Source: an uncultured Helicobacter sp. (GTDB taxonomy: Bacteria > Campylobacterota > Campylobacteria > Campylobacterales > Helicobacteraceae). Taken from it: a stretch of 64,000 bases of DNA. Location: positions 10,401-74,400 of the forward strand of contig NZ_CALERY010000034.1 in NCBI RefSeq assembly GCF_937906905.1, given 5' to 3'. Every line of letters starts with the position of its first letter. Position 1 is the stretch's first letter. The position numbers and the translations under genes were made by a program. Below, piece by piece: positions 1 to 46,901 of the stretch. A model generated the notes under the pieces. The model ran no database searches. It was given only the letters and a program-made list of their open reading frames with translations, and was not told the origin of the DNA.

Positions 1-140
1 GCGCGTATCACACCTTTTGCCATGCTTTTTATGCACGCTACCATTTTCTACTCCTTTAGAATTTCATATAAATCTGCAGGAGACATATCGTCAAATTTGC
101 TGGAAAATTAAATACCTGCTTGGTGCTAGATTCTAGCGCT

Positions 141-1082: not shown

Positions 1083-2876
1083 AATTAACCTCCCAAAATG
1101 AGTTATAAAGTCGATTTCTCATGCCAAGCTCGGCATTTAGCGCGGATTTGGTATAGGTAGATTCTAGTAGCGTAGCGCCATAGAGTGGGTTGCGCCCTAG
1201 TCCAAAGGCGCGTGTCTCCACCCCGAGAGAATCTAGTATGAGCGGTGTGATGTCAAAATGACTCATCTGGCGTTTTTTGAGTGAGCTTTGATTGTATTTG
1301 GCGGTGAATTTGGGGTTGATGAAGAGATTGTAGATTGACCGCTTGCCAAAGGTGTCAAAAAATCCATCTCCCTTATGCGAGAGATGATCGCCCAGCAGGA
1401 TAATAGTAAGACTCTCGCCAAATTGCGCTTGGGCTTTGGCGATAAACTCTGCTAGCAGTCTATCTGCGCAAGTAAATGCCTCTTGATACGAGTCGCCTAG
1501 TCCTGGGCAAGCTTCTTTATCGACAAAGCCATTTGGGTGGTGGGTATCAATAGTAGAGACATAGAGCACAAAAGGCTCTGGCAGGGATTCTAGCTCATCT
1601 TTGGCAAGTGCCAGGAGCGCAGAATCCTTAAGCCCCCAGAAGCCTTGCAGCTCCTTTGGCAGTGGGTCTGGCACTTTGCCTTGCGCTTGCAAGGCTGGGA
1701 GATCAAGCACGGAAATCGCATGCGAGCCTAGAAAGTAGCGCATACCAGAGAAGCTAGAATCTAGCCCAGAGAGATAGCGCTGCGTATAGCCAAGCTCACT
1801 TAGCACATCGCTCACGCACACCGCAGAATCTAAAAAGTATTTATTCGCAAACGAATTCCCAGCTATTGGCATATCGAGTGGAATCCCGCAGAGATAGGAG
1901 ATCGTCCCAGCAATCGTCCAGCCAGTGCCGCTAACTTGCTCTAGCCCGCCTATGCCAGCAGTGTGGCTGAAATTTACATAGCTGCTAGCGAGGGTTGCGA
2001 GATTTGGCGTGATACTTAGTGCAGGGTTTAGTGTGGTATTGAGATTTTGGGGTGGATTTGAAGCTACGCTAGAGTGCGAAGTGTTCCCCCCCCCCCCGTT
2101 TTGGCGTGTGGGCGCACAGAAGCAATAGCGCTAGAATCTGTTGTAGTGATAAAGGTAGATTCTAGGGATTCTGCCAAGATGATAAGAAGATTTTGCTTGG
2201 GCTTTGCACCAGTATGGGAGCTGGCAAAAGAGCTGGGCTCTGGGGTAATGTAGTTTGACTCATAGAAGCTTGAAAATGGTGCGGCTTGCGATTTGATATA
2301 TTGAGTGATGTGGAGCTTATTATTAGCAACAGCACCCCCGATGACAATCGTAGCAAGTGGCAGTGCAAATGCCAGATACCGAGCAATAGTATAGCGAGCG
2401 CTCATGCGCTGCCAGAGAGTCAGGGCATAGGGCGTGAAAAGTGCGATAAGCATACTTGGAAACAGCACACGCTTCTCAAATGCCACAAAAAGCCAGAATC
2501 TATGTAGCTCCATAGCAATGGGAAGAAATAGTATCAAAAGCGGCACAAATGCCACACAAAATCCCACAAGCGCACTAAAATTACTGCGCAAAAATCCAGC
2601 AAAATATGGCAATGCACTCAAAAGCAACGCATTTACCACACTAGGCAATACCACATTTACAATAAATGAGCGCACGACCATAGAATCCATATCAAGCAGT
2701 GGGAATTGCAGGTGGAAGAGAATCTGTCCAAAATGCTGGATTTCAAAATTTAGCTCAAGCCAATAGCTGCTAAACAGCAAGAAAAAGCCTATCAAAAACA
2801 CCAGAAACACCGCACAAAGCTTGGCGAGAAATCGCGCATTAGCCTTATGCCTTGCTTGCTTTAGGGACTCTATCAT
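1063..2876 (-). pseudogene. phase-variable sulfatase-family membrane transferase (LTA-synthase / phosphoglycerol-transferase-like), currently frameshifted at a G12 tract
   Basis: ORF 2064..2876 is a polytopic membrane N-domain. ORF 1063..1872 is the sulfatase/alkaline-phosphatase-like domain ('LYVSTIDTHHPNGF', 'LLGDHLSH'). The frame of the 3' ORF stays open upstream through the homopolymer at 2086..2097. The two frames fuse if the tract is G13 or G10. Confidence 0.7.
2086..2097. repeat. homopolymeric tract C12 (G12 on the coding strand)
   Basis: Counted directly: 'gtgtt-cccccccccccc-gtttt'. It lies at the junction of the two sulfatase-gene halves. Confidence 0.95.
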
Positions 2877-2931
2877 CTCTACTCCTTGGGAAACTGCAAT
2901 GATACAATGAAAACCACAATTTGCTTCAAGT

Positions 2932-5900
2932 TTATTTCGCTACGCGCACAGCCTGCGCACTTGTGCGCGCGATAAAGTCGCTATCATACATGGCTTCGGC
3001 AAGCGCACCGCCTAGCACATATTCGCCCGTGAGTGTCGCGACACATTTGATATACACCACCTGTGATTTGCCAGAATCCACAAGCCCATTATCGAAGAAA
3101 AACATCACCCTATCGCGCAAGATATCCATATAATCCACGCGATCATTGGCTTTCATAAACGCCCTATCCCCTAGCGCCTCTTCCTTGTCCCTGCCGTTCT
3201 CTTGGCTATCGCTGCTTTGAGACTTGATTCTGGTGTTTTGGATTTCCCAGCCTGTTGGGATAATTTGGGTTAGTGCGAGATTTCTAGGCGATTTAGTCTG
3301 CGAAGTGTTTGTGATTTTTAGCTCGATGTAGAATTCATCGCCAAGCTTGATATTGCTAGGGTCAAGTGCCACTTCCTGCCCACTTTTGTCAATGGCAAAA
3401 ATCCGGCGCGATAGCTCTAGATTCTGCGATTTAGCAGGGATTGTGATTGGATTGACATCTGGCACACCTGTGCTAACTAGCGAGATATAGAGCTTGTCTT
3501 TAGCCTCCAGGGTATTTTTAGCATGAGGATCAAGCACAATGCTCATGCGCTTGTTTGTGGAGTATTCCTTGCCATTGAGGGTAAATCGCACGCCTTTGTC
3601 GCTAGAATCCGCACTCATGCTAAGTGCTAGCAGACTTGTGGCAATGTCTTGTGTGCCCAGCCAGCGCTCGTTTTCTAAAGTTTTGGCAATGGAGTGCAGC
3701 AGGGTAAGGTTTGGCGACTTATCGATGAGTGCGAGAAAATACGCACTCATGGCTTGGTTTGTCAATGCGCTACCATAGTAGTAATAGCGCGTATAGTAAT
3801 CCCACCTATCACTATAAGGCTTTTCATAGTGCTGCATATCTAGGAGATTTTCAGGCAGTTTGGCGCGGATTTCTTTAGCCACATCATCTAGCCCACTTAG
3901 CTTATAGCTCGCAGCAAGGCTTAGTTTCTCGCGCAAGGAGAGCTCTTTGAAGTGATAAGTATAAAGCTCATTCATCGCCGAGATATTTGGCGTGCCTTGG
4001 AGTGCTAGGAGAAACAGCGGGTATGCCTGCAGAGCCGGGGTAGAGCTAGATTGCACGCGTTTGGTGGCATAGGCGCTCCAGTTTTTGAGCACAGATTCTG
4101 GGACTTGATAGCCTTTTTGCTTGGCTAGGAGAAGAAAAAGCGCGGCATAGTCGCTACCATAGTCGCTAGTCTCATTAGAATCTATCCAGTAGCCAAACCC
4201 GCCATTCCCACGCTGGAATTTCACAATACGATTGATTGACCGCTGCACTCGCTCACGCACGATCTCTTCGCTCTGCTCTTTTGCGCCTTGGAGCCCTAGT
4301 AGTAGTGGCATAGTCGCAGAAACACTCTGCTCGATACAGCCATACATATAATGCAAGAGATACTCGACTTTGTCTTGATAGGAGAAAATCATCGATGGTG
4401 AGATGATGAGCTTTTGTGCGAGCGAGCCTTGGATATATTGCTGCTTGGCTTGGAGAGTCTTAGACTCTTTAGCATTGAGTGTGGAGAGCTCTTCGTCTGT
4501 TTGTGGTGGCAGAGGTGTGCTGATGTTTATGGCGTAGTGGTTGCTCTGTGTGATTGTTTGTTTTGCCACAGGAGCTTTTGCGCTATTTGTGCCACTCTTG
4601 GTAGAATCTACGCTAGATTCTGGCGATACTTCTACCTGGGCTTTCATGGTGATTGTGATATTGGCTTTGCCTATGGATTTTGGCGTGATAGCAAGGTATT
4701 GCATAAAGCGTTTGCGCTTGGGATCAAGGCTAGATTCTAGCTTTTTAACCGCGACATCGCCGCTTACTTGAATATCAACTTGACTTAGGCTTGCGCTATC
4801 TTGGGCGAGCACCTCCACAGGTGCGATGATTGTATCATCGCGCTTCATCTCCTCTGGGATATTGGAGTAGAGATTGGCGGGCTCGGCGATTGTTACATGA
4901 GATTCTGCATGTCCCACACTGCTCTCATCGCTTGCGATGAGCATGACACGCGCGCTGCCCACGAAGTTTGGCAGCTGATACTCTATAGTCGCTTTGCCGC
5001 TTTCATCGCTTACTCCGCTGGTGAAGTAGATGAGATTCTCGCGGCGCTTCTTGCTAAAATCTGCCGCCTGTCCCAGGCTCTCCTCATCTCCACCGATAAG
5101 CACACTTTGATGCACCACGCCAAATAGCCGCGCCATAAACTCGTCAAAATTATCATAGTGGATCGCTTCATCGTTGATTTTGCTATATAAGCCTTTGAGT
5201 GGGTTTGGCGTTTGGAAATTGATAATACGCAAAATCCCCTCATCAACCACCGCAAGCGTGTAAGCCATTTTGCGCTTTTTGGGGTTTTGGATTGTGATTT
5301 GGAGCTTGGAAGCTGGTTTTATGGATTCTGGTGCGATGATTTCAGGAGAGAGTGCTAGGGCTGGGTCTTGCACAGGGATACTAATCGTGCCAAAGCTTCG
5401 CTTGACTATCGCGGTTTTTCGCATATCTTGCTGTGTGTGCTTTTGCGATTTGTCAAAATCTTCGCCCGACTTATCTGGGTCTTTGGCTATGAGTGTCGCA
5501 CTTACATAGATGTTTGGCGCATATTCTTTTGTAAGCGGGATTTCATAGCTTGTTTGATTGCCAGAAATTTGGATCATCTCACTTTTTAGGATTGTATCGC
5601 CTTGGGTTAGCGTGATAATCGCCTTGCTAAAGCCTTTGGAGTTAAAGCGCACTATGGCTTTCTCGCCTGCTTCATAAGAAGATTTATCAAGCTCTAGGGG
5701 CAGCTGTGATGGGTTTGCCTTTATCGCAGCATCGCCATACGCATCTGCCACGAGCCAGACGATTTTAGGGGGATTGCTCCCATCATCTAGCTCGACAAAC
5801 ACAGAATCATAGTCCTCCACCAAGCTTGAAAGATCTTCGCGCAAGTTAAATGGCGCGCCCTTAGAAGTGATACTCCCCTCTTTTATAAGCGTGGTGTTAA

Positions 5901-8250
5901 TGTCGCTTTTGATTTTAGCATTGAAGTCTTTTTGCACATCATAGTCAAACCACCAGTAGCGATTGTTGCGGTAGATTTTGTAGCGGATTGATTTATCTGC
6001 GATTGGCTTGTCGGTAAATGGATTGAGCACGATGAGCGGAAGCTCAAGCGGAGCATGGAGTAAATCGACATAGTGCGGAATCTCGCCCACCCCGATAATA
6101 CTGCCTGTGCCAAAATACTGCACCGCAGCAGCGTTTGAGACAGGGTGTCCGGTGCTTTCAAGCACTTGCGCCCTAAGTGCCAGGCGCAAATGCTTATAGC
6201 TAGAATCTAGCTCGGCGAGATTAAAATTAAAGTGCGCTTTGCCACTTTCATCGAGCACACCATCAAAGCTTTTATCAAAGCGATAGGACTCGCTCTCACT
6301 CTGGGAGAAATCAAAGCCCTTATACGCCTTTGATTTGTAATCAAGCGGCGTGGCTTGGAGATTGAGCTTGTATTTTAGCCCTTGTGCGCTTGCCCCTGTG
6401 AGATACGCGCTTTGTATCGTCGCTTCTAGGTGCTTTTTGGCGTGGTCTAGGGATTTGGGCGCATCAATATCTACGCGGATTTTATTTGGCGTGATGTATT
6501 CGACTTGGAAGTTTTTGTAGAATTTCTCGCTTCCTATGCTAAATGCCGCGCGATAGCCCCCTGTGATGAAGCTTGTATCTGTGGCAAATGTATAGCTATA
6601 AAGCCCATAGCCTATGGGCTGGATAATCTGCTCGCTGATAATCTTGCTGCCACGCGGGTTAAAAATACTAAGCTTAATTGGTGCATTTTGTATCCGCTCA
6701 TCGCGCACAAGGACATTGAGCTGGATAGATTCCCCAGGATTGGCAATCCCCCTATCCGTGTAGGCAAACACCTTGCGTTTGCGCTTTTGCGCACCGCTTG
6801 TATCGCGCCCATCGTAAAATCTACTATCATAGTGAAGCCCTAGATAGCTGATCTCGCCGCCTTTGTCGCTAGATTCTGCGATTAAAATCGCAGGTTTTAG
6901 CGCAAAATCCCTAGAAGGCTCATTGTCCTTATCTTTGATGATTTGCCCGCCAAGTGCGGTGGATTTATAGGTGCTAAACTCCGCATAGCCGCCAGAATCT
7001 GTGCTCACAGATTCTATGAGTTTGTTTGAAGTGGAGTAGAGCGAGAGCTTTATGCCAGAGAGCGGCTCGCCCGTGGTGGAATCCAGCGCATAGGCGATGA
7101 GCTTATCCCCAGCCCTCTCTGCTACAAGCGCGACATTAGAGACGACAAGCAGTTTAATAGCACTTCTATATGCGTCTCCATTATCGTATTCTTCCCATTC
7201 ATTATCATTTGGGTAAATCTTATCCGCGCGCTTAGTGCGAAACTCCAGCACATACGCGCCTTGCTCGAGATCTTTGTCCAGCAGCTCACTTAGCACAAGC
7301 GCGGTTTGCACTTCATCTTTGCTAAGGTCAAAGGTAATTTCTTTCTCCCAGATTTTATCCATAGATGAGGTGTCAATATAGCTGCTATTTCTGGTGATAT
7401 ACTCGCGTATATTGCTATCACTGCGCAGATTCTCGGTGCTAAGCTTGTAGATAGCCAGTGTGCTTTTGCGGATATTGGTGCTTATCACACCGATTTTCAC
7501 ATCACGACTGCTAGCAAGCATACTGCCCTCTTGGGCAAACCGCAGGCTTGGGTAGAGACTTTTGCTTTGTAGCGTGATCTCCTCGCTTTCTATGGGGTGC
7601 TTGAATGTGAGTTTATAGGTTAGACCCGGTTCAAAATCCCCAGTAAGCGTGATTTTACTGCCCTGCACGAGTGCTTTTACCTGCGGCGCGTAGTTCCCAC
7701 TATATACGCGAATACTCCCCTGCGCCTTGGCAGAATCCAGCCCAATATCGCGATCGAGAAAAATCTCTATCGCCTTTTGCTTGCCATAGATTTTTGCATC
7801 AAGCACCTTAGCAGTATCGCCAGATTCTAGGGCGATGTTTGCGCTAGCTGTATCAAGCTTGATAAGCAGCTCTTTTTTGCCATTTGTCTTAGGAGTGTAA
7901 AGGAGATTCCACTCATGCTCACTTACTTGCTGGAGGCTAGCGAGCTTGCTATCCTTAGGCATAGGCGCAGAATCTATGGAGATTTTAGATTCTAGCTCGC
8001 TAGCACTTAGTGGCGTGTTGGTAAAGATTGGCAGCGAGATTTGCGTGCGATTCTCATCTTTGAGAGTGGTGAAAGTCGGCGTGCCAAACTCTGCGGCAAG
8101 CGCGTTTATCTGCGCTCTAGCAGAGCTTTTGGAGATTTGCACCCCAGCCGCAAGCGCAAGCGCGACAGCCACGATGAGTGCGAGCAGGACAAGGAGCTTT
8201 GACTTAGATAGCAGCGTAGGCTTGCTGGGCGTTTGAGCTGGATTTGACAT
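2932..8250 (-). CDS. bacterial alpha-2-macroglobulin family protein (thioester-containing, ECAM/YfhM-like)
   Basis: 1772-aa ORF with an N-terminal hydrophobic anchor. Thioester motif 'GCIEQ' sits in 'HYMYGCIEQSVSATMPLL'. Size and domain layout are typical of bacterial A2M. GGGGGAG SD lies upstream of the ATG at 8250. Confidence 0.9.
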   Translation of the reverse strand: MSNPAQTPSKPTLLSKSKLLVLLALIVAVALALAAGVQISKSSARAQINALAAEFGTPTFTTLKDENRTQISLPIFTNTPLSASELESKISIDSAPMPKDSKLASLQQVSEHEWNLLYTPKTNGKKELLIKLDTASANIALESGDTAKVLDAKIYGKQKAIEIFLDRDIGLDSAKAQGSIRVYSGNYAPQVKALVQGSKITLTGDFEPGLTYKLTFKHPIESEEITLQSKSLYPSLRFAQEGSMLASSRDVKIGVISTNIRKSTLAIYKLSTENLRSDSNIREYITRNSSYIDTSSMDKIWEKEITFDLSKDEVQTALVLSELLDKDLEQGAYVLEFRTKRADKIYPNDNEWEEYDNGDAYRSAIKLLVVSNVALVAERAGDKLIAYALDSTTGEPLSGIKLSLYSTSNKLIESVSTDSGGYAEFSTYKSTALGGQIIKDKDNEPSRDFALKPAILIAESSDKGGEISYLGLHYDSRFYDGRDTSGAQKRKRKVFAYTDRGIANPGESIQLNVLVRDERIQNAPIKLSIFNPRGSKIISEQIIQPIGYGLYSYTFATDTSFITGGYRAAFSIGSEKFYKNFQVEYITPNKIRVDIDAPKSLDHAKKHLEATIQSAYLTGASAQGLKYKLNLQATPLDYKSKAYKGFDFSQSESESYRFDKSFDGVLDESGKAHFNFNLAELDSSYKHLRLALRAQVLESTGHPVSNAAAVQYFGTGSIIGVGEIPHYVDLLHAPLELPLIVLNPFTDKPIADKSIRYKIYRNNRYWWFDYDVQKDFNAKIKSDINTTLIKEGSITSKGAPFNLREDLSSLVEDYDSVFVELDDGSNPPKIVWLVADAYGDAAIKANPSQLPLELDKSSYEAGEKAIVRFNSKGFSKAIITLTQGDTILKSEMIQISGNQTSYEIPLTKEYAPNIYVSATLIAKDPDKSGEDFDKSQKHTQQDMRKTAIVKRSFGTISIPVQDPALALSPEIIAPESIKPASKLQITIQNPKKRKMAYTLAVVDEGILRIINFQTPNPLKGLYSKINDEAIHYDNFDEFMARLFGVVHQSVLIGGDEESLGQAADFSKKRRENLIYFTSGVSDESGKATIEYQLPNFVGSARVMLIASDESSVGHAESHVTIAEPANLYSNIPEEMKRDDTIIAPVEVLAQDSASLSQVDIQVSGDVAVKKLESSLDPKRKRFMQYLAITPKSIGKANITITMKAQVEVSPESSVDSTKSGTNSAKAPVAKQTITQSNHYAINISTPLPPQTDEELSTLNAKESKTLQAKQQYIQGSLAQKLIISPSMIFSYQDKVEYLLHYMYGCIEQSVSATMPLLLGLQGAKEQSEEIVRERVQRSINRIVKFQRGNGGFGYWIDSNETSDYGSDYAALFLLLAKQKGYQVPESVLKNWSAYATKRVQSSSTPALQAYPLFLLALQGTPNISAMNELYTYHFKELSLREKLSLAASYKLSGLDDVAKEIRAKLPENLLDMQHYEKPYSDRWDYYTRYYYYGSALTNQAMSAYFLALIDKSPNLTLLHSIAKTLENERWLGTQDIATSLLALSMSADSSDKGVRFTLNGKEYSTNKRMSIVLDPHAKNTLEAKDKLYISLVSTGVPDVNPITIPAKSQNLELSRRIFAIDKSGQEVALDPSNIKLGDEFYIELKITNTSQTKSPRNLALTQIIPTGWEIQNTRIKSQSSDSQENGRDKEEALGDRAFMKANDRVDYMDILRDRVMFFFDNGLVDSGKSQVVYIKCVATLTGEYVLGGALAEAMYDSDFIARTSAQAVRVAK

Positions 8251-18258: not shown

Positions 18259-19725
18259 TTAGCTGGATTTGCGTAGGAGTAGCGCGCATTCTTTGTGGCT
18301 GGTGTGAGGGAACTGATCAAAAAGCGCGAAATGCTCAATGACATGGCTTTGGCACAATATGCGCAAGTCGGCTTCTAGACTTGTTGGGTTGCATGAGATG
18401 TAGATAATGTAGGGGAAGCTTGCTAGGAAGTCAAGCATGGCTTCATCGCCTATACCGCTTCTTGGCGGATCGACAAGCACATGCGAGAATCTAAATTGCT
18501 CAAGCTCCACCCCACGCAAGCGGAAAAACTCCCGCTGCCTGCGCAATGCACTTATGGTCTCTGCTCCGCTAAGGCGTGCGGAAGTGATGTTTGTGATATT
18601 GTTGCGGTGGGCGTTGTGTGCGATGAGTGCATGTGCGGATTTGACGACTTCGGTTACTAGCACTTTGTCAAAGCACTCTGCCAAAGCGATGGAGAAATTA
18701 CCATCTCCACCATACATCTCAAGCAGATCTTCGCGCGTATGGGCGTGGATTTTGCGCTTGACAAAGGAGAGCATGCAGGGATTCATATAGGCATTTGGCT
18801 GGCAGAATCGCCCCTCCTGGCGCAAGTAGGTGTAGGGTTTATCAAGCATAAGCACATCGCAAATCATATCCCTGGTATCAAGTGTGGATTCTCCTTGGTT
18901 TGGGGGCTTGCGCATAGCTGCGCCGGAGTCCATAGAATCTAGGGTGCTAGATTCTGGCACGCTAGATTCTAGGAAGTGAGATTTGGCGGAGGTGGATTCT
19001 GGCGGGGTTGAAGAGAAAATGTGCTTTTGATTTTTGCTTCTGGCGATGAGGGTTAGGGCTTGGATTGTGGCGTGTGGCTGGTGCGGGGGATTTGCTAGTG
19101 GGGGAGGGCAATTTGTGTGGAGGGCTTCGCGCAGGGTTTCAAGCAGGTTGTTTGTAGCGTGGCAGAAGCTAGAATCCAAGGGTTTATGATAGATAAGTGT
19201 GATGATGACATCGCTGTGCTGTGCGTGATCATGCGCGATTGTATAGAGCGTGGTAGTAGAATCTAGTGCTGTTTTCTTTATGGATTGTGGCGGGGTTGCG
19301 GATTTTACCGCAGAGTCTAGCGTGCCAAATCGAGAGCCTAGCACCTCTATGGCATAGATCTTGTGGGAGAGAAGTGGGCTAGATTCTAGCAGGGGCATGA
19401 GCTTTTCTAAGGTGCGTTGGAGGGCTGGGAGGAGAATTGGGCAATTTGAGAGTTTGACCCGAGAGTTATGTCCTCGAGCGCTCATAGAGAGTGAGAGCTT
19501 GGGTGCAGAATCTGGCTTGTAGTCTTTATAAACGCGGAACTCTCCCCTGGCACGATAGCCAGAATCTGGCGAAGCATATATGCTAAGGTGAGGGAGAGTG
19601 TAGGCGCGTAGCAGGGTGCGAAGTGCGGTGGCTTTTGTGGTGAGCGCACTTTTGCTATGTGGGCTGGCGTCTGTGCTTTGAGCAGGATCACACCCGCCAC
19701 ATATCCCTCTAACCTCGCATTTCAT
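18259..19725 (-). CDS. TrmA/RlmD-family RNA (uracil-C5)-methyltransferase with a low-complexity insertion
   Basis: The C-terminal SAM-MTase has 'VLVDPPRSG', 'YISCNP' and 'FDQFPHTSHKECALLL'. A central segment of roughly 80 aa rich in P/S/LES/LDS is coded by a motif cluster around 18930..19110. Confidence 0.7.
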   Translation of the reverse strand: MKCEVRGICGGCDPAQSTDASPHSKSALTTKATALRTLLRAYTLPHLSIYASPDSGYRARGEFRVYKDYKPDSAPKLSLSMSARGHNSRVKLSNCPILLPALQRTLEKLMPLLESSPLLSHKIYAIEVLGSRFGTLDSAVKSATPPQSIKKTALDSTTTLYTIAHDHAQHSDVIITLIYHKPLDSSFCHATNNLLETLREALHTNCPPPLANPPHQPHATIQALTLIARSKNQKHIFSSTPPESTSAKSHFLESSVPESSTLDSMDSGAAMRKPPNQGESTLDTRDMICDVLMLDKPYTYLRQEGRFCQPNAYMNPCMLSFVKRKIHAHTREDLLEMYGGDGNFSIALAECFDKVLVTEVVKSAHALIAHNAHRNNITNITSARLSGAETISALRRQREFFRLRGVELEQFRFSHVLVDPPRSGIGDEAMLDFLASFPYIIYISCNPTSLEADLRILCQSHVIEHFALFDQFPHTSHKECALLLRKSS

Positions 19726-23392: not shown

Positions 23393-24529
23393 ATGCAGTT
23401 GGATTCTAGGATTTTTGTCGCGGGGCATAGAGGGCTTGTGGGCAGTGCAATCACAGCGGAGCTACAAAATCTGGGATTTGCCAATCTCATCACGCGCACG
23501 CATGCAGAGCTAGATTTAGGCGATATGGGTGCAGTGGAGAAATTTTTCGCTAAAGAGCGTCCAGAGTATGTGATCCTAGCTGCGGCAAAAGTCGGCGGAA
23601 TCTACGCCAACAACACCTATCGAGCAGATTTTCTCTACGAAAATCTCGCTATCCAAAACGCTGTGATATACAATGCCTACAAACATGGTGTGAAAAAGCT
23701 GCTTTTCCTAGGAAGCTCATGTATCTACCCTAAGCTTGCCTCCCAGCCAATCGTAGAATCTGCCCTGCTCACTAGCGAGCTAGAATACACTAACGAGCCT
23801 TATGCAATCGCTAAAATCGCTGGCATGAAGCTTTGCGAGAGCTTCGCGCTGCAGTATGGCTGCAACTTCATCAGTGTCATGCCTACTAATCTCTATGGCG
23901 AGCAGGATAATTTCAATCTTGAAAACTCTCATGTTTTCCCCGCACTGCTGCGCAAAATGCATCTAGCCAAGCTCTTAAAGTGCGGCGATATAGATGGGAT
24001 CGCGCGTGATATGCGTCGCTATGATACTAGCCAAGAGCTTGATACAGAATCTATCATGGGGTTTTTGGCTAAACATGGGATAAGCGCAAAGAGCGTGCGT
24101 GTGTGGGGGAGCGGGAATGTGCGGCGTGAGTTTTTGCACGCTGCGGATATGGCTCGAGCATGTGTGCATGTGCTGCGAAATATCGACTTTTGCGAGCTAG
24201 CAGATATGGTGCAACCTGCACTAGCAGGCGGGGATTCTAATGGGTGTGCGGATTATGGTGCGCAAGATCCAAGCGCTAAAGAAGCCAGAAAAATACGCAA
24301 TACGCATATCAATATCGGCTATGGTAGCGATGTGAGTATCCGCGAGCTAGCCGAGCATATCCGTGAGATTGTTGGGTTTGACGGGGAGCTGGAGTTTGAT
24401 GTCAGTAAGCCTGATGGCACGCCACGCAAGCTCATGGACTCTAGCAAGATTATAGCGCTTGGCTGGAAGCCTAGTATCGATCTAGAATCTGGTATCAAGC
24501 GAGTATATGAGCATTATTGTCGTTTGTAG
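23393..24529 (+). CDS. fcl: GDP-L-fucose synthase (GDP-4-keto-6-deoxymannose epimerase/reductase)
   Basis: 'IFVAGHRGLVGSAI', 'SSCIYP', 'YAIAKIAG' SDR motifs. Start moved to ATG 23393, 5 nt after SD AAGGAG. Contains an inserted low-complexity segment. Confidence 0.85.
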   Translation: MQLDSRIFVAGHRGLVGSAITAELQNLGFANLITRTHAELDLGDMGAVEKFFAKERPEYVILAAAKVGGIYANNTYRADFLYENLAIQNAVIYNAYKHGVKKLLFLGSSCIYPKLASQPIVESALLTSELEYTNEPYAIAKIAGMKLCESFALQYGCNFISVMPTNLYGEQDNFNLENSHVFPALLRKMHLAKLLKCGDIDGIARDMRRYDTSQELDTESIMGFLAKHGISAKSVRVWGSGNVRREFLHAADMARACVHVLRNIDFCELADMVQPALAGGDSNGCADYGAQDPSAKEARKIRNTHINIGYGSDVSIRELAEHIREIVGFDGELEFDVSKPDGTPRKLMDSSKIIALGWKPSIDLESGIKRVYEHYCRL

Positions 24530-24564
24530 GAGTCTAGATTCTAGGGCGATTCTAGGGAAGCTTG

Positions 24565-25395
24565 CTAGGGCAGCACAACTGCGCCAAGCAGGATAAAGGG
24601 GAGATATTCTTTCTCATAGAGATGATAGACATTTTGCTTAGGCGTGTTAATACTAGGGCGTAAGTCAAGGGCGGAGCATAGCACACCTTGTGGGCTTGCA
24701 CCCATTTGCTTTGCGACATTTTGTATCATCTCTGCCACTTCGTAGGGAATAGAATCTAGCTCTTGCATATCCGGGGCTTGCTCTTTAGCACAATAGACAT
24801 TGATAGAAAAAAGCGCGAGTTTAAAGTCATCATAATCCGCGAGTTTTCCTGCTTGCTGTAACTGCCCTATATCGCGCACTTGTGTAATGGCTTTTTTAAT
24901 GCGCTTTATGCATCTGCTGCTAAACTCCCACCTTGCTTTCCTTGTATTTTTGCCGACATTAAGCCATAAATGCTTAGATTCTATCCATATATCAAACCTA
25001 TTATCCTCTATCGCACACCAGAAGTCAATCGTGCGCCTGTGCTTTTCACCCTCTTGCCCCAAGCTTACACCCCTGCAATCTACCCCATACTCGCTTATCA
25101 CATAAGGCGTGAGGCGGGAGAGTGCCATAGCGATAGCTGCAGAGTTGCTACGCTCATTATATACGATAGGAAAGTCTCCTATTTGCTCACACTCACATAG
25201 GTTAAGGTTTATATCAAAAATATGCCGACAAAGCTTGTTGTAAAAGTCCTTTAGCTTCCTGCCGCCTTTAGCCCCACTCCCTGTATTTGCTCCCGCACTT
25301 ACGCTATCGCTTTTGTAGAGAGAGTCTTCTAAGTAGCATTCATACCATCTCGCATTTTTCTCGCTAAATCGCTTGTCTATGTCGTAGTCATACAT
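24565..25395 (-). CDS. hypothetical protein with a PD-(D/E)xK nuclease-like motif
   Basis: 276 aa. '...ISEYGV...RRTIDFWCAI...FDIWIESKHLW' fits the E / D / ExK order of restriction-endonuclease-fold proteins. Its start overlaps the channel gene stop by 8 nt. Confidence 0.35.
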   Translation of the reverse strand: MYDYDIDKRFSEKNARWYECYLEDSLYKSDSVSAGANTGSGAKGGRKLKDFYNKLCRHIFDINLNLCECEQIGDFPIVYNERSNSAAIAMALSRLTPYVISEYGVDCRGVSLGQEGEKHRRTIDFWCAIEDNRFDIWIESKHLWLNVGKNTRKARWEFSSRCIKRIKKAITQVRDIGQLQQAGKLADYDDFKLALFSINVYCAKEQAPDMQELDSIPYEVAEMIQNVAKQMGASPQGVLCSALDLRPSINTPKQNVYHLYEKEYLPFILLGAVVLP

Positions 25396-26086
25396 TGTTA
25401 TTTTCCTTTTCTAGTTTTTGAGCTTTTATCTCACTAATACTATCAACAATCACGCCTATGACCATATTTAGCACGATAAAACTCACAATGATCATATAGC
25501 TTATAAAATATATCCACGCATAAGGATATATTCGCATAATAGGTCGTGCTATCGCTCCGCTCCAACTCTCCCCTGTCATCACTTGAAAAAGTGTGAAAAA
25601 GCTCTTGCCCAAATCACCAAAATACTCTGGCGCAGCTGTGGCAAAAAGCTGTGTGCCAAGCACCGCATAGATATAATACACAAGCAAGAGCAAAACACCT
25701 ATGGATACAACACTGGGGATACTCCTTGTGATAACTGCGATGACAAACCGAAGCTGTGGCACAGATGAAGAGAGTCGCGCGGCTCTAAGCACCCTAAACA
25801 ATCGTAGGATAGCAATATTGCCTATGATTGTCGTCGGTAAGACAGATAAAACCACTATACATAAATCAAAGAGATTCCATTTTGAGAGAAAAAACTCTTT
25901 GCGTAGCACAAGGATTTTCACACACATTTCAATGCAAAAAAACAATAAACACATTCTATCAATAGCGATAAGAATAGAATTGTTTTTCAAAAATGAAAAT
26001 GTCAATGCTCCCAAAACTATAGAATCTAAAATGATAACACCAAGCACTAAGCCTTGAAACAGCCTAGAATGAATAAAAGTATTCAT
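25388..26086 (-). CDS. voltage-gated ion channel, BacNaV (NaChBac/NavAb) family
   Basis: 232 aa with six TM segments. S4 'ILRLFRVLRAARL'. The pore region 'FFTLFQVMTGESWSGAIARPIMRIYPYAW' is nearly collinear with NavAb '[29 protein letters not shown]' (recalled from memory). Confidence 0.85.
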   Translation of the reverse strand: MNTFIHSRLFQGLVLGVIILDSIVLGALTFSFLKNNSILIAIDRMCLLFFCIEMCVKILVLRKEFFLSKWNLFDLCIVVLSVLPTTIIGNIAILRLFRVLRAARLSSSVPQLRFVIAVITRSIPSVVSIGVLLLLVYYIYAVLGTQLFATAAPEYFGDLGKSFFTLFQVMTGESWSGAIARPIMRIYPYAWIYFISYMIIVSFIVLNMVIGVIVDSISEIKAQKLEKENNNV

Positions 26087-26090
26087 AATG

Positions 26091-26366
26091 CTAAAGTCTA
26101 TTTTGAAGCTTATGTGGCTTTTTCCATTTGGCTTTAAAGTCTTTATCTACAAAAAATACTTTTAAATCGGCTTTGAAATCCTTATCTACCCAAGCAATAG
26201 TAGTTGTTGCGTTAAAATCTTTTTCTACAAAATACCACAAACCATCGTGCTTTGCTTTAAAGTCTTTATCTACCTCATACACAAGCAAATCTGCCTTAAA
26301 ATCCTTATCTACCTTGAAACATTTTACTTCTGCTCTATTTTCCGCTACTACACAGATTTTTGCCAT
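26091..26366 (-). CDS. 91-aa repeat mini-protein (five V-[DE]-KDF-[KN]-A units); possibly DUF6150-like
   Basis: 'KVDKDFKADLLVYEVDKDFKAKHDGLWYFVEKDFNATTTIAWVDKDFKADLKVFFVDKDFKAKW'. Its stop lies 4 nt before the channel start. Confidence 0.5.
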   Translation of the reverse strand: MAKICVVAENRAEVKCFKVDKDFKADLLVYEVDKDFKAKHDGLWYFVEKDFNATTTIAWVDKDFKADLKVFFVDKDFKAKWKKPHKLQNRL

Positions 26367-26510
26367 AACAGCTCCTTTTCAATGAAATTTTGAGCTAGCA
26401 TTGTATGAAACTGCTTTATTGATAAACGATAATTTATATATATAAAACCTATAATTTACTGACTAAAATCTACATCTTTGATAAACCAACAAAGAGTAGA
26501 AGAAAGTAGA

Positions 26511-26918
26511 ATGAAAGTTATTGATCGCATAAATGAGATTCTAAAGCGAAAAAATCTAAGCAAAAAAGAGCTTGCCAATCGCCTTATAGACTTAGGCTTG
26601 CGTGCAAATAAAACAGGTGAGACGCCCACAATCTCTAGCATTTATGCCTATCTTAATGGCAATATCGAGCTAAAGGCAGATATGATTCCATTTATCGCTG
26701 ATGCGTTGGGCGTGTATGAGCAGGAGCTTTTCTCCCAAAGCTCACCGCACAAAATGCTTCAAAGATTCTGCTTACAAGACCCAAATCTCGCTAAATATAG
26801 CCACATTGTAGAACTCCTAGAATACATCAGCCCAAAGTCCCTAGAAACGCTTGAAAAGACACTTATCAATCACAAAGCAAAAACCATAGAGCTAAATCAC
26901 ATTATAGAAAAGATATGA
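26511..26918 (+). CDS. XRE-family helix-turn-helix transcriptional regulator
   Basis: 'INEILKRKNLSKKELANRLIDLG...ISSIYAYLNG' HTH_3-like pattern. ATG 26511 is preferred over the upstream alternative start. Divergent from the mini-protein operon. Confidence 0.65.
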   Translation: MKVIDRINEILKRKNLSKKELANRLIDLGLRANKTGETPTISSIYAYLNGNIELKADMIPFIADALGVYEQELFSQSSPHKMLQRFCLQDPNLAKYSHIVELLEYISPKSLETLEKTLINHKAKTIELNHIIEKI

Positions 26919-27043
26919 ATATCTAGCACAGAATCCATATCGTATGTATTTTTGCAGTTTCGTGTGTTATTTTATGATGTATAAAAGCAAGATAGCTTGC
27001 GAGAGAATACAATCAAAATCAAGTAGCAAAAAGAATAGCGAAG

Positions 27044-27120
27044 TGGCGGAGCGGACGGGGCTCGAACCCGCGACCCCCTGCGTGACAGGCAGGTATTCTA
27101 ACCAGCTGAACTACCGCTCC
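27044..27120 (-). tRNA. tRNA-Asp (GUC)
   Basis: The reverse complement folds as a cloverleaf: GGAGCGGTAGTTCAGCTGGTTAGAATACCTGCCTGTCACGCAGGGGGTCGCGGGTTCGAGCCCCGTCCGCTCCGCCA. Anticodon loop is CTGTCAC. Confidence 0.95.
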
Positions 27121-27157
27121 AAAGGAGATATGTAGAATCTGCAAAAGCAAATATAAA

Positions 27158-27233
27158 TGGTGGTCGCTACAAGGCTCGAACTTGTGACATCCACCTTGTA
27201 AGGGTGGCGCTCTACCAACTGAGCTAAGCGACC
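27158..27233 (-). tRNA. tRNA-Val (UAC)
   Basis: Reverse complement GGTCGCTTAGCTCAGTTGGTAGAGCGCCACCCTTACAAGGTGG...GCGACCACCA. Anticodon loop is CTTACAA. Confidence 0.95.
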
Positions 27234-27266
27234 GAAAAAACGCAAGAACAAAAAGAAGAGAAAAAG

Positions 27267-27341
27267 TGGTGACCCCTAGGGGATTTGAACCCCTGTAGCC
27301 ACCGTGAAAGGGTGGTATCCTAACCACTAGATGAAGGGGCC
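27267..27341 (-). tRNA. tRNA-Glu (UUC)
   Basis: Reverse complement GGCCCCTTCATCTAGTGGTTAGGATACCACCCTTTCACGGTGG...GGGGTCACCA. Anticodon loop is CTTTCAC. Confidence 0.95.
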
Positions 27342-27354
27342 ACTACTTAATCAA

Positions 27355-27430
<76 letters not shown>

Positions 27431-27470: not shown

Positions 27471-28274
27471 TCAAGGGTTGGAGCCAGATTCAAGATATTT
27501 TATAAGGATTTCTATGGCTTTGGTGCTGGCTTGAAGCTGGATATATTCGCGTGTGCTAAGTCGATATGATAGCGTGCCATCTCCGCTAACCATACTAGAA
27601 TCCAAAAGCTCTTGCTGCTTTAGAAGCCCAGCTTCTGTCTTAGCTTCCTTAGTGGTTTTTACTTTGTCGTGGAAAAAGTGCCGCTCGATAAGCGGCAGCT
27701 TACCGCGTGCCTGCACTCCTAGAAACACGCACCCTACGGGCTTTTGCTCACTTCCACCGCTTGGACCTGCTACTCCAGAGCTCGCTAGCGCCACATCTGC
27801 GCCAAATCTCTCCAGCGTGCCAGAGAGCATTTGTGATACAACAGGCTCGCTCACTGCGCCAAAATCCTCTAGCACATCGGGCTTTACACCCAACATCTCG
27901 CGCTTTATGTCATTGGCATAACTAACCACTCCGCCGACAAATACGCTAGAAGCGCCATTTATTCTAGTGAAGCGATAGCTTAGTAGTCCGCCTGTGCAGC
28001 TCTCCGCAGTTGCGAGTTTAAGCCCTAGATTTTCTAGTCGAGCCAGTGCTATAGCTTCCAGAGTGTGCCCAAACCCTATATTAGTGCCAAAAAACCCACA
28101 TGCCCAGCGCTCAAATCGCTCTAGCTCGGCATGCTCGCCCCAAATTTGCGCACATGCCCCTCTATCCTCCCACACTAGCCCAAATCGAGCAATCATCTCC
28201 GCACATAAAATTCGAGCAGAATCCATATCCATATTAAGAAAGAACGCTAATTTTTGTGATAGTTGTTGTTGCAC
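27471..28274 (-). CDS. CinA-family protein / nicotinamide-nucleotide amidohydrolase (PncC domain)
   Basis: 267 aa. 'LATAESCTGGLLS...GGVVSYAN..K' is the CinA C-terminal domain signature. Confidence 0.75.
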   Translation of the reverse strand: MQQQLSQKLAFFLNMDMDSARILCAEMIARFGLVWEDRGACAQIWGEHAELERFERWACGFFGTNIGFGHTLEAIALARLENLGLKLATAESCTGGLLSYRFTRINGASSVFVGGVVSYANDIKREMLGVKPDVLEDFGAVSEPVVSQMLSGTLERFGADVALASSGVAGPSGGSEQKPVGCVFLGVQARGKLPLIERHFFHDKVKTTKEAKTEAGLLKQQELLDSSMVSGDGTLSYRLSTREYIQLQASTKAIEILIKYLESGSNP

Positions 28275-28427: not shown

Positions 28428-29276
28428 ATGCAAAACAAAAAAGACGCCAAGCCTACGAAAAAGGCTATCACAATCCGCCCAGAATCCGATAAAACCCGCA
28501 CAAAAGATATTTACAAGAAAAATGGACGGCTTAAAGATGAGTTCTATTTAAAAGAGATTGAAAAACTCCAAGTCGAGCTGCTCAAACTCCAAAACTGGGT
28601 CAAAAAGACTAATCAAAAGATTGTCATTATCTTAGAGGGGCGAGATGCTGCTGGTAAAGGTGGGACAATCAAGGCTCTCACAGAGCATTTGAATCAGCGT
28701 GGATTCCGCATAGTTGCGCTTCCTAAGCCAACAGAAATCGAGAAAACACAATGGTATTTCACTCGCTACATCAGCACGCTGCCAAGTGGGGGTGAGATTG
28801 TGTTTTTTGATCGTAGCTGGTATAACCGCGCAGGTGTAGAGCGCGTCATGGGGTTTTGCACGCAAGAGGAGTATCGGCAATTTATCTACCAAGTAAGCAA
28901 TCTCGAGCAAATGCTTATTAGCAGTGGCACGATGATTTTTAAATATTTCCTTGATGTGGGGCAAGAGGAGCAAAAACGCAGAATCAAGCGCCGAAAAACT
29001 GACCCGCTACGCATGTGGAAGCTAAGCCCAATCGATTCCAAGTCGCTTGATCTCTGGGACGAATACACAGCGGTATTTGAGAAAATGTTTTCACGCACGC
29101 ATACACCCTATGCGCCATGGATTATCGTGGATTCCAATGATAAAAAGGCAGCACGCCTTAATATCGCACGCGATCTACTTAGCAAAATCGACTACGATGG
29201 CAAAGATCCGGCTTCTGTGTGCTTGCTTGCGAATCCAGCTATTCTCCACCCCTACTCACAATCTCCAAAAGTTTAG
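28428..29276 (+). CDS. ppk2: polyphosphate kinase 2
   Basis: 282 aa. 'IILEGRDAAGKGGTIK' Walker A and 'FDRSWYNR' PPK2 motifs. Confidence 0.9.
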   Translation: MQNKKDAKPTKKAITIRPESDKTRTKDIYKKNGRLKDEFYLKEIEKLQVELLKLQNWVKKTNQKIVIILEGRDAAGKGGTIKALTEHLNQRGFRIVALPKPTEIEKTQWYFTRYISTLPSGGEIVFFDRSWYNRAGVERVMGFCTQEEYRQFIYQVSNLEQMLISSGTMIFKYFLDVGQEEQKRRIKRRKTDPLRMWKLSPIDSKSLDLWDEYTAVFEKMFSRTHTPYAPWIIVDSNDKKAARLNIARDLLSKIDYDGKDPASVCLLANPAILHPYSQSPKV

Positions 29277-45378: not shown

Positions 45379-46901
45379 TGCCACATTTCATCGCCAAACT
45401 TCCAGCCAAGATCACTATGCCAGATTCTGGTTCTACTCTTGATTTCAAGCTAGAATCTGGTGCATTTAAGCTCCCAAGTATCCGCTCCCCACATATCGCC
45501 CTTATCGCTATGCCCTACACCTACCAGAGCTCTGCTAGATTTTGTTTTCTACATGAGATCACGCGCGAGTGTGATGTGCTGCTAAAATGCGTAAAATCCC
45601 TGCGCCCCACACCAATAGGTATAGCCAAAGATGCGCTCTCTCGCCTAAGCGCACACTATGAGGTGCTACAGGATAATCTCTCCCTAAGCTCGTCAAAGCA
45701 GCAGGTGAGCAGTGCGTTTTTGCTTGGAGAGAGGGAGATTTTGGATCTTGTGGCGCGAGAGGCTAGTGCTTTGGATTTTGGTCAATCCGTAGAACCTAAG
45801 GCACGCTTTGATTCTACTATCCTAGAAATTGGCTTTGGCAGTGGTAGGCATATCCTTCACTTAGCTAGGCAAAATCCCAATGCTCTCGTGCTAGGGCTAG
45901 AGATCCATACGCCCTCCATTGAGCAGGTGCTACGCCAGATAGAGATTCTAGGACTAGAGAATCTCTATCTCTCTTGCCTTGATGCGCGTGTATTTCTCTC
46001 ATGTGCGCCAAGCCATAGCCTGCGCGAGATATATATTCACTTTCCAGTGCCTTGGAATAAAGCCAAGCACCGCCGTGTGCTTAATGGCAAGCTTTTGCAA
46101 GAAGCGTTGCGCGTGCTGGATTTGGCTGGTATGCTGGAGTTTCGCACAGATGACAGGGAATATTTCAACGATGTGCTCGAAGAGGCAAACGCGCTAGAAT
46201 CTACTGCGCCTAAATCCTTTTGCGTGCGCCATAGTATCAATGAAAGCCAAGCGATTACAAGTAAATATGAAGCACGCTGGCTGCGCCAGAGCAAGGATAT
46301 TTATACTATCATCGTGCGACCAGATTCTAGGGGCAATGCTAGCGGAGATTCTAGCAAGGGGTTTGAGCAAGATTCTAGTGCAGATGTGATTGTGGATTCT
46401 CCCACCACACTAGAATCTAGTGCGCAAAATTTTGCGTTTAGTTTTGATGAAAAATTGGTAAAATCCCTTTTGGCAAAGGTGCTTGAAGCGGAGTCCTCGG
46501 CAGATGGATTTGTGAGGCTTTCGCGCATAGCGGATTGGCTTTGTGCGCAAAAGTTTGTGCTAGATTCTGGTGATTTGGATTTTGGCAAGCTGGATTTTGG
46601 TTTGAGTGTTACCAAAGATTCTGGCACAGAATCCGCACTGGAAGCTAAGGCAGGTTTAAAGCCAGAATCTAGTGCGCGTGGTTTTTTGCGTATTGTTGAT
46701 ATGTATGCTTCAAGCACTGCGCGCAGATTTGCGCTGCTGGTGAGTTTTGGGGATTTTGCCTATCCGTGTAGCCGCCTTGTGCTTTTTGCAGAATCCGGGC
46801 AGGGCTGCTATCTCCCAGAGCCCCCTATACCCACGCAGCTAAATTACAAAGCCCATGCGTTGTTCGTGCGTATTTTAACCCAAGTTTTGGAGCGACTATG
46901 A
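45378..46901 (+). CDS. trmB: tRNA (guanine-N7)-methyltransferase TrmB with N- and C-terminal extensions
   Basis: Core 'ILEIGFGSGRHILHLARQNP...LGLEIH...IHFPVPW.K..H...R'. The C-terminal roughly 200 aa are rich in DS/ES/LDS low complexity. Confidence 0.75.
   Translation: MPHFIAKLPAKITMPDSGSTLDFKLESGAFKLPSIRSPHIALIAMPYTYQSSARFCFLHEITRECDVLLKCVKSLRPTPIGIAKDALSRLSAHYEVLQDNLSLSSSKQQVSSAFLLGEREILDLVAREASALDFGQSVEPKARFDSTILEIGFGSGRHILHLARQNPNALVLGLEIHTPSIEQVLRQIEILGLENLYLSCLDARVFLSCAPSHSLREIYIHFPVPWNKAKHRRVLNGKLLQEALRVLDLAGMLEFRTDDREYFNDVLEEANALESTAPKSFCVRHSINESQAITSKYEARWLRQSKDIYTIIVRPDSRGNASGDSSKGFEQDSSADVIVDSPTTLESSAQNFAFSFDEKLVKSLLAKVLEAESSADGFVRLSRIADWLCAQKFVLDSGDLDFGKLDFGLSVTKDSGTESALEAKAGLKPESSARGFLRIVDMYASSTARRFALLVSFGDFAYPCSRLVLFAESGQGCYLPEPPIPTQLNYKAHALFVRILTQVLERL

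Follow-up and report, generated by a model that had tools for sequence, protein, structure and literature searches.

Layout of the locus

We analysed a 64,000-nt stretch of DNA from an uncultured Helicobacter genome of the Helicobacter canis group (contig NZ_CALERY010000034.1, positions 10,401 to 74,400), referred to below as the window. Its subject here is a cassette of about 2.3 kb with four open reading frames (ORFs), in which the genes for a putative nuclease, a short voltage-gated sodium channel homolog of the BacNaV type and a mini-protein form a three-gene operon, divergent from the gene of an XRE-family helix-turn-helix (HTH) regulator. An earlier description made from the letters alone (the sequence-only reading) had pointed to this block as a possible defence island. 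The features, in window coordinates, are as follows.

24565-25395, minus strand: gene for the 276-aa nuclease-family protein, the constant component of the cassette (ORF list)
25388-26086, minus strand: gene for the 232-aa short BacNaV-type voltage-gated cation channel (ORF list, Pfam, PDB)
26091-26366, minus strand: gene for the 91-aa Septknot (DUF6150, PF19647) mini-protein, in the first, swappable operon slot
26367-26510: AT-rich divergent control region of 144 nt, between the operon and the HTH gene
26511-26918, plus strand: gene for the 135-aa XRE-family HTH regulator (Pfam, PHROG)
24572-26911: extent of the transferable cassette, defined as the block of blastn homology shared with relatives whose flanks are unrelated
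27044-27430, minus strand: tRNA-Asp/Val/Glu/Lys cluster (ARAGORN; context only)

As read in the sequence, the nuclease and channel genes overlap by 8 nt (ATGTATGA) and the channel and mini-protein genes are separated by 4 nt. The tRNA-Asp gene (27044-27120, minus strand) lies 125 nt from the HTH stop and is followed by tRNA-Val, tRNA-Glu and tRNA-Lys. All coordinates of the sequence-only reading hold for the ORFs, their spacing, the tRNA neighbour and the dip in GC (guanine plus cytosine) content, and its divergent AT-rich spacer comes to 144 nt at 26.4% GC if the HTH gene starts at the ATG at 26511. The mean GC content is 0.463 in the window and 0.389 in the cassette, with values of 0.326 for the mini-protein gene, 0.373 for the channel, 0.390 for the HTH gene and 0.445 for the nuclease gene. 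The proposed low-GC islet is thus borne out for the mini-protein gene, the channel, the spacer and the HTH gene, and not for the nuclease gene, which is essentially at genome level.

A previously unannotated family of probable nucleases

The 276-aa protein had no match in Pfam, NCBIfam, PHROG, PADLOC or PDB, the last searched by sequence and with two profile searches; the sole matches returned from PDB were designed helical proteins with E above 0.2. A word-indexed search found 64 homologs, and every named source was a Helicobacter (canis, zhangjianzhongii, japonicus, sp. MIT 05-5293 and uncultured Helicobacter). An exhaustive profile search extended the family to 114 cluster representatives, 55 of them with E of 1e-10 or better. 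Conservation was assessed in an alignment of 47 of the 114 representatives, with identity down to about 17%, in which the sole invariant columns were E81, E102, D124, E139 and K141, and Q172 was nearly invariant.

The AlphaFold2 (AF2) model of the protein (predicted template modelling score, pTM, 0.82) shows an alpha-beta-beta-beta-alpha-beta core, composed of a helix at 81-95, strands at 98-106, 120-128 and 135-146, a helix at 160-181 and a strand at 190-203. D124 is located in the second core strand and E139-S-K141 in the third, with an additional acidic residue upstream, so that in the model the D/ExK residues have the canonical PD-(D/E)xK layout. Foldseek matches to the model were nearly all PD-(D/E)xK nucleases, each individually weak, with template modelling (TM) scores of at most 0.27 and best E-values of 1.8e-3 (PDB) and 2.4e-4 (BFVD). 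They comprised SduA (Shedu), MGME1, RecB, the cap-snatching endonucleases of bunyaviruses and arenaviruses, Cas4-family and other phage PD-(D/E)xK exonucleases, and UL24. Because the invariant acidic and lysine residues sit on a core of the PD-(D/E)xK type and the fold matches are uniform in theme, the 276-aa protein very probably has nuclease activity, as a member of a new, previously unannotated PD-(D/E)xK family. The sequence-only reading had named this superfamily from the stretch IDFW...IWIESK, and that assignment is supported by the modelled core fold and by the invariance of D124 and E139-x-K141 across the family.

An N-terminal EVE domain was found in 2 of the 47 relatives scanned (382 and 407 aa). 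The combination of EVE and nuclease is the architecture of modification-dependent restriction enzymes (PMC6765204, PMC7897488, PMC7641849). The Pfam scan found neither an EVE nor any other Pfam domain in the window protein, which accordingly has no modified-base reader fused to it. From their sequences, the EVE fusions of the family (6001-7149 in loci L074/L075; P0217) are candidates for modification-dependent restriction enzymes. In L074, the pair formed by the EVE-nuclease fusion and an IceA2-like mini-protein gene has a SIR2-family gene running divergently from it.

A short BacNaV-type channel

BacNaV channels serve as structural models for eukaryotic sodium and calcium channels, and the eukaryotic NaV and CaV channels descend from their family; little is understood of what BacNaV channels do in bacteria. 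The 232-aa protein, which had been taken for a BacNaV-type channel from its sequence, matched Pfam Ion_trans (PF00520) at 1.8e-45 over residues 8-224 and showed full-length homology to NavMs (5hvx, 2.6e-55) and NavAb (3rw0, 1e-49) over residues 4-227, confirming that identification. Four S4 arginines (R95, R98, R101 and R104) occur at every third position in ILRLFRVLRAARL. The selectivity filter is TGESW, in FQVMTGESWSG, with the pore glutamate at E173 (T-x-E-x-W type); the filters of its relatives read TGEGW, TLEGW or AGENW.

The C-terminal neck and coiled coil of BacNaV channels are missing: the protein stops about 8 residues beyond the region aligned with NavAb and NavMs, and the BacNaV chains in solved structures run about 40 residues further. 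It belongs to a clade of short channels (221-254 aa, 50-97% identity to the window channel) whose named sources are Helicobacter, whereas BacNaVs outside this clade are at most 51% identical to it and 255-300 aa long. To judge from the sequences, the short clade is specific to the Campylobacterota.

Recurrence of the channel-nuclease pair and exchange of modules

A total of 86 loci were surveyed with profile hidden Markov model (HMM) scans, including 59 BacNaV loci from other phyla. The loci with a nuclease-family gene are given below in the order regulator, mini-protein slot, membrane protein, nuclease; percentages are identities to the window proteins, and MAG denotes a metagenome-assembled genome.

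Window and H. canis CCUG 32756T (L009): XRE HTH; Septknot; channel; nuclease
MAG L010: most of the regulator gene beyond the contig end; Septknot; channel; nuclease
H. zhangjianzhongii (L011): XRE HTH; IceA2-family protein; channel; nuclease
H. typhlonius group (L001-L004): HTH, 94% identical; IceA2-family protein; channel, 63%; nuclease, 52%
H. jaachi (L078): HTH; 74-aa CxxC-repeat protein; channel, 40%, with a TLEGW filter; nuclease, 45%
H. japonicus (L005/6): HTH; no mini-protein; 171-aa zinc-ribbon protein with two transmembrane segments; nuclease, 49%
Campylobacter cuniculorum-like MAG (L076/77): no regulator; no mini-protein; channel, 55%; nuclease, 30-33%
L074/75: no regulator; IceA2-like protein; no membrane protein; nuclease as an EVE fusion
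L079: divergent HTH_3; no mini-protein; no membrane protein; nuclease
L081: no regulator; truncated Septknot ORF; no membrane protein; nuclease
L083 and L072: no regulator; no mini-protein upstream; no membrane protein; nuclease

The channel gene lies directly upstream of the nuclease gene in the canis group, the H. typhlonius group, H. jaachi and the C. cuniculorum-like MAG. The last was assigned to Campylobacter because the YchF of the locus clusters (90% identity or more) with C. cuniculorum YchF. Its pair is set in a different context, with GmrSD, cupin and YchF genes nearby, the GmrSD type IV restriction gene being about 3 kb away. In H. japonicus, the place of the mini-protein and the channel is taken by the 171-aa protein (L005, 5461-5976), which has two predicted transmembrane segments and a CPKC...CGSC zinc ribbon and matched no Pfam or PADLOC family. 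It was considered as a homolog of a 171-aa protein adjacent to a Septknot gene in L008; no homology was found, and this was rejected. The HMM scans detected no relatives of the nuclease, Septknot or IceA2-like proteins in the 59 BacNaV loci from other phyla.

The tree of the channels is at odds with that of the nucleases. H. jaachi is an outlier for the channel (40%) and not for the nuclease, whereas Campylobacter is an outlier for the nuclease (30%) and not for the channel (55%). Because of this incongruence, the pairing appears to have survived module exchange or to have been rebuilt through it, a pattern for which neither chance nor plain vertical descent is an easy explanation. Across the sampled loci, the nuclease is the constant element, the channel a recurrent and optional partner, and the mini-protein position an exchangeable slot.

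The sequence-only reading had treated the three genes as a unit and had set a failure of the three to co-occur outside the source strain among the results that would count against it. The channel-nuclease pair is shared by a number of Helicobacter lineages and a Campylobacter with unrelated contexts, which upholds the two-gene part of that unit; the mini-protein falls outside it, being swapped even between close relatives. The link to the channel is likewise qualified, as the pair recurs while the channel is replaced or absent in many nuclease relatives and occurs solo in housekeeping contexts.

The mini-protein slot

The 91-aa protein is a member of PF19647 (DUF6150, now named Septknot), with 62.8 bits against a cutoff of 27 and E of 3.1e-17 in Pfam. 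Five [DE]KDF[KN]A repeats, at residues 20, 33, 48, 61 and 74, agree with its earlier description as a repeat protein. In the AF2 model (mean predicted local distance difference test score, pLDDT, 90.7), the top four PDB fold matches were all Q9PR55, the 7_1-knot protein, with a best TM of 0.50, a root-mean-square deviation of 3.1 A and weak E-values of 0.03-0.36. Q9PR55 and Septknot form a 7_1-knotted protein family of unknown role (PMC10840475).

The slot is either empty or filled by a Septknot, IceA2-like or CxxC-repeat protein. An IceA2-family protein stands in place of the Septknot protein in H. zhangjianzhongii and the H. typhlonius group. IceA2-family mini-proteins (PF05862, 36-38 bits) were identified at L001 4995-5291, L011 7674-7970 and L074 5691-5984, in each case directly upstream of a channel-nuclease pair or of an EVE-nuclease fusion. 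The H. jaachi slot (L078, 5005-5229) encodes a 74-aa protein with two CxxC...C repeats (MAVYTCKYCGK... and KYVCKHCGS...) and no family match. In L081, a Septknot remnant (a truncated ORF, MAKICVVAE...) lies directly upstream of a distant solo nuclease homolog. A weak IceA2-like ORF follows the solo nuclease gene in L083 (4230-4550).

We considered whether the IceA2-like and Septknot mini-proteins are divergent homologs and rejected this, as they share no sequence similarity. Septknot as a general partner of BacNaV channels was rejected as well, since none occurs in the 59 BacNaV loci and the Septknot genes of Flavobacteriaceae and of a JGI contig have no channel nearby. The Flavobacteriaceae Septknot (L007, 4001-4623) is a secreted form followed by a Zn_ribbon_15 gene. 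In L008 (2169-6230), the surroundings of a Septknot gene, with HNH, DEAD-helicase, WYL and DnaB genes, resemble those of mobile or defence-type regions. Beside hpyIM, H. pylori carries either the endonuclease-like iceA1 or, as the other allele, iceA2. IceA2-type proteins may be nuclease-associated in general.

Regulator and control region

The regulator, which the sequence-only reading had placed in the XRE type, matched HTH_19 (PF12844) above threshold in Pfam (1.6e-08, 34.8 bits, cutoff 30.2) as well as PHROG families of transcriptional regulators and repressors. Its ORF is open from a TTG at 26478; the homologs are all 135 aa and start at the ATG corresponding to 26511. The regulators of the H. 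typhlonius group, H. japonicus and H. jaachi cassettes, each 135 aa, are 94%, 78% and 68% identical to it. Between the window and the H. typhlonius group (26511-26918 against L001 4453-4860), identity falls from the HTH (94%) to the neighbouring polyphosphate kinase PPK2 (77%), the channel (63%) and the nuclease (52%). The high conservation of the HTH gene between these two would reflect either very strong purifying selection or recent recombination.

Promoter-like hexamers are found in the control region, along with a direct repeat (copies at 26408-26427 and 26467-26486) that includes TTGATAAAC; positions 26423-26458 form an imperfect palindrome. Six Helicobacter loci share a conserved element of some 20 nt, TTATCGTTTA..ATAA. 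The region may serve as an operator. The spacer half nearest the HTH gene has its match in the H. typhlonius-group locus, and the half next to the mini-protein gene tracks whichever mini-gene is present, a mosaic consistent with recombination within the cassette.

Relocation between chromosomal sites

In blastn, window positions 24572-26911 matched H. canis CCUG 32756T at 92% (L009, 7178-9512) and MAG L010 at 87%; the match to H. zhangjianzhongii (L011) was 91-93% outside the mini-gene region. The homology of the cassette to these relatives ends at the ORF ends, and blastn found no match between its flanks in any pairwise comparison among the window, L009, L010 and L011. The flanking genes are as follows.

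Window: left, fcl; right, tRNA-Asp
H. canis CCUG 32756T (L009): left, hypD, gltS and fliW; right, a 102-aa ORF and an NFACT-family gene
H. zhangjianzhongii (L011): left, cydA and cydB; right, efp, pabA and pabB
MAG L010: left, contig end; right, two unknown ORFs, an ABC-F gene and a GT11 gene

Within the canis group, the block is therefore present at four different sites, flanked by housekeeping genes. No recombinase or integrase was found among the four cassette ORFs. Recombinase-less movement of restriction-modification units has been documented in Helicobacter (PMC2853133). In these comparisons, the cassette is a mobile, modular accessory unit that relocates between chromosomal sites, which lends support to the earlier comparison with islands.

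The position next to the tRNA genes, which the sequence-only reading had linked to the block, is not a property of the cassette, as its closest relatives carry it elsewhere: no tRNA gene lies within 8 kb of it in L009-L011. A tRNA-integrated island with att repeats was considered and rejected on the same ground, together with the lack of an integrase and of a tRNA-derived repeat (no k-mer of at least 10 nt is common to tRNA-Asp and the far boundary at 24400-24700). In the H. typhlonius group, H. japonicus and H. jaachi, the cassette lies beside the same tRNA cluster, with differing far flanks (fur, pyrH or purD).

An 11-nt palindrome, CTAGAWTCTAG, is located just past the nuclease stop, in the window and also in L009-L011. 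As a candidate cassette end it was rejected, because it has 50 copies across the 64 kb of the window (up to 1 mismatch), against 1.3 expected and a maximum of 5 in 100 shuffles, for example at 126, 1754, 4730, 6200, 18932-18972, 24482, 24534, 46194-46672 and 53215-53240. It is a short repeat dispersed throughout the genome in the H. canis group, possibly similar to repetitive extragenic palindromic (REP) elements or to uptake sequences.

Beyond the tRNA cluster, the CinA ORF (27471-28274) encodes 267 aa, compared with 168-184 aa in relatives, and its real start is probably internal; the PPK2 ORF (28428-29276) encodes 282 aa, compared with 334-374 aa in relatives.

Interpretation and alternative explanations

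We favour, at somewhat less than an even chance, the explanation that this is a small mobile conflict cassette of the Campylobacterota, moving without a recombinase and acting either in defence against invaders or as a closely related selfish module. It is suggested by the catalytic-looking nuclease with EVE-fused relatives, the recurrent linkage of nuclease and channel, the exchangeable modules, the XRE regulator, the reduced GC content and the relocation among housekeeping sites; the GmrSD gene near the Campylobacter pair speaks for it as well. In such a cassette, the XRE repressor, divergent from the three-gene operon, would keep operon expression low. The short channel, as the recurrent membrane partner of the nuclease, could report or amplify a change in membrane potential, such as the depolarisation accompanying phage DNA injection, and this event would license the nuclease, the presumed catalytic component with its E...E...D...ExK signature and RecB/Cas4/MGME1/Shedu-like fold, to cleave nucleic acid; or else channel and nuclease might both be effectors. 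The mini-protein, predicted to be a very stable small beta-repeat protein, may serve as an inhibitor of the nuclease or as an adaptor. A more specific version of the conflict cassette is an immune module that reads the electrical state of the cell, in which the channel would detect depolarisation caused by phage genome injection or another envelope insult and, through ion influx or direct contact, license the nuclease against incoming or resident DNA; this version we regard as doubtful.

Several observations weigh against a conflict or defence role. PADLOC (PADLOC-DB v2) returned no match for the nuclease, the channel, the mini-protein or their relatives, so that the PADLOC comparison proposed in the sequence-only reading came out negative; the HTH gave a weak match to PDC-M64C over 30 residues only. 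The nuclease family was not found in scans of viral-contig, phage and plasmid collections, and every cassette examined sits among housekeeping genes and not in a defence island. The fold matches of the nuclease model are weak (best PDB E 1.8e-3, TM at most 0.27). A channel is missing from roughly one half of the nuclease lineages sampled, and channel and nuclease are each also found alone. Short-clade channels stand alone in housekeeping contexts, as between bioD and an MCP gene (L012, 57% identical) or beside petABC (L085/86, 55% identical), and solo and paired channels share similar short C-termini, leaving no visible docking feature. The resemblance to abortive-infection or defence systems drawn earlier is matched by no catalogued system, and a defence function is something we infer.

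The cassette could instead be a selfish module of the addiction or toxin-antitoxin kind that plays no part against phages. Toxicity would then come from the nuclease, the channel or both, kept in check by the XRE protein or the mini-protein through neutralisation or repression, and the unit would persist and spread because its loss is costly. Relocation between housekeeping sites without a recombinase, as seen for restriction-modification and toxin-antitoxin units in Helicobacter (PMC2853133, PMC3874152), would fit this, as would a regulator more conserved than its cargo (94% against 52-63%), the small protein directly upstream of the nuclease in several lineages, and the location outside defence islands. 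The mini-protein is dispensable, however, being absent from the Campylobacter pair and swapped between unrelated folds, which would be uncommon in a cognate antitoxin; the regulator gene is not co-transcribed with the operon but divergent from it, and several loci lack it; and the EVE-fused relatives point to recognition of modified nucleic acid, a defence-type trait. On balance we consider the selfish module unlikely, while giving it real weight. Distinctly unlikely, in our view, is the proposal that the nuclease alone is functional, as a stand-alone restriction-like enzyme (for example type IV or modification-dependent), with the channel and mini-protein as passengers. Solo homologs, HTH-plus-nuclease pairs and EVE-nuclease fusions do exist without a channel, and channels of the same clade stand alone elsewhere. 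Yet the channel-then-nuclease order, with overlapping or closely spaced genes, is kept in two genera and in no fewer than two unrelated contexts, although the trees are incongruent, and the different membrane protein in the same slot in H. japonicus suggests selection for a membrane partner; the nuclease family was also never found beside the BacNaV genes of the 59 other loci.

The sequence-only reading had itself named an ordinary physiological sodium channel, acting in motility or in ion or pH homeostasis, with unrelated neighbours. An intact voltage sensor and selectivity filter, solo orthologs in housekeeping contexts and the lack of matches to defence models are what one would expect of such a channel. 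We nevertheless hold it to be improbable: the channel travels with the nuclease, HTH and mini-protein genes as one 2.34-kb block found at four chromosomal sites, its GC content is 0.373 against 0.463 for the window, its gene is translationally coupled to its neighbours, and a second genus also has the channel-nuclease pair. Some eukaryotic channels are regulated by subunits derived from enzymes, and the 276-aa protein might by analogy be a non-catalytic cytoplasmic auxiliary subunit that replaces the missing C-terminal tetramerisation or gating domain. The absence of that domain from the short clade and the overlap of the two genes speak for this, but the sole invariant residues of the family are five residues of the active-site type, a sign of catalysis, many members of the family lack a neighbouring channel gene, and the solo channels of the clade lack the C-terminal domain as well. 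We give the auxiliary subunit only a very slim chance.

A BacNaV channel repeatedly paired with a nuclease in a small mobile cassette would point to genetic conflict rather than to housekeeping ion homeostasis. The work moreover delimits a predicted nuclease family that had lacked annotation, with 114 cluster representatives and some EVE fusions among them, and provides the first genomic association for the Septknot (7_1-knot) and IceA2-type mini-proteins, both without a known role; for the H. pylori marker gene iceA2, the association with a nuclease offers a lead. If the cassette did read the electrical state of the cell, immunity founded on a voltage-gated channel from the family ancestral to NaV and CaV would be without precedent among defence systems, and BacNaV channels would gain a biological role. 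The small size of the cassette (2.3 kb) makes experimental follow-up straightforward.

Comparison with known systems

A literature search for voltage-gated channels in anti-phage defence returned Zorya, RexAB, CBASS and CRISPR membrane effectors only, none with an Ion_trans channel, and the composition of the cassette is undescribed. Zorya follows the same logic, combining the ion-driven membrane complex ZorAB with the ZorC/ZorD nuclease in one operon; the membrane part of Zorya, on sensing that the envelope is perturbed, brings in the nuclease (10.1101/2023.12.18.572097, PMC11890865). In contrast, the cassette is much smaller, has no MotAB-like ZorA/ZorB and no ZorC/ZorD (PADLOC negative), and its membrane protein is a homolog of tetrameric voltage-gated channels with six transmembrane segments, of the Ion_trans superfamily. 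Lambda RexAB likewise joins a soluble nucleic-acid-related protein, its cytoplasmic sensor, to a depolarising ion channel in the membrane that changes the membrane potential on opening (PMC12894663). The two systems have no sequence relationship, since RexB is not an Ion_trans protein and RexA not a PD-(D/E)xK protein, and the cassette nuclease retains an apparently catalytic site.

Shedu (SduA), RecB, Cas4 and MGME1 are the best structural matches to the 276-aa model (8ps5, SduA, E 1.8e-3) and have the core and the D...ExK placement in common with it. It differs from them in the low TM scores (0.2-0.27), in having no Shedu HMM (PADLOC), Pfam or PDB-profile match and, with respect to Cas4, in having no Fe-S cysteine cluster. 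The EVE/PUA type IV enzymes resemble two relatives of the nuclease (382 and 407 aa) in fusing EVE to the nuclease domain (PMC6765204, PMC7897488, PMC7641849), whereas the window nuclease has no EVE domain and is partnered by the channel and the mini-protein. The mini-protein itself shares with Q9PR55/Septknot its Pfam membership, the five-fold repeat and the best fold matches (PMC10840475), while its repeat is KDFKA and not SFPD. With the BacNaV channels NaChBac, NavAb and NavMs, the window channel shares full-length homology (1e-49 to 1e-55), the four S4 arginines and the T-x-E-x-W filter; it is set apart by the loss of the neck and coiled coil, by its place in a short Campylobacterota clade and by its location on a mobile cassette together with a nuclease.

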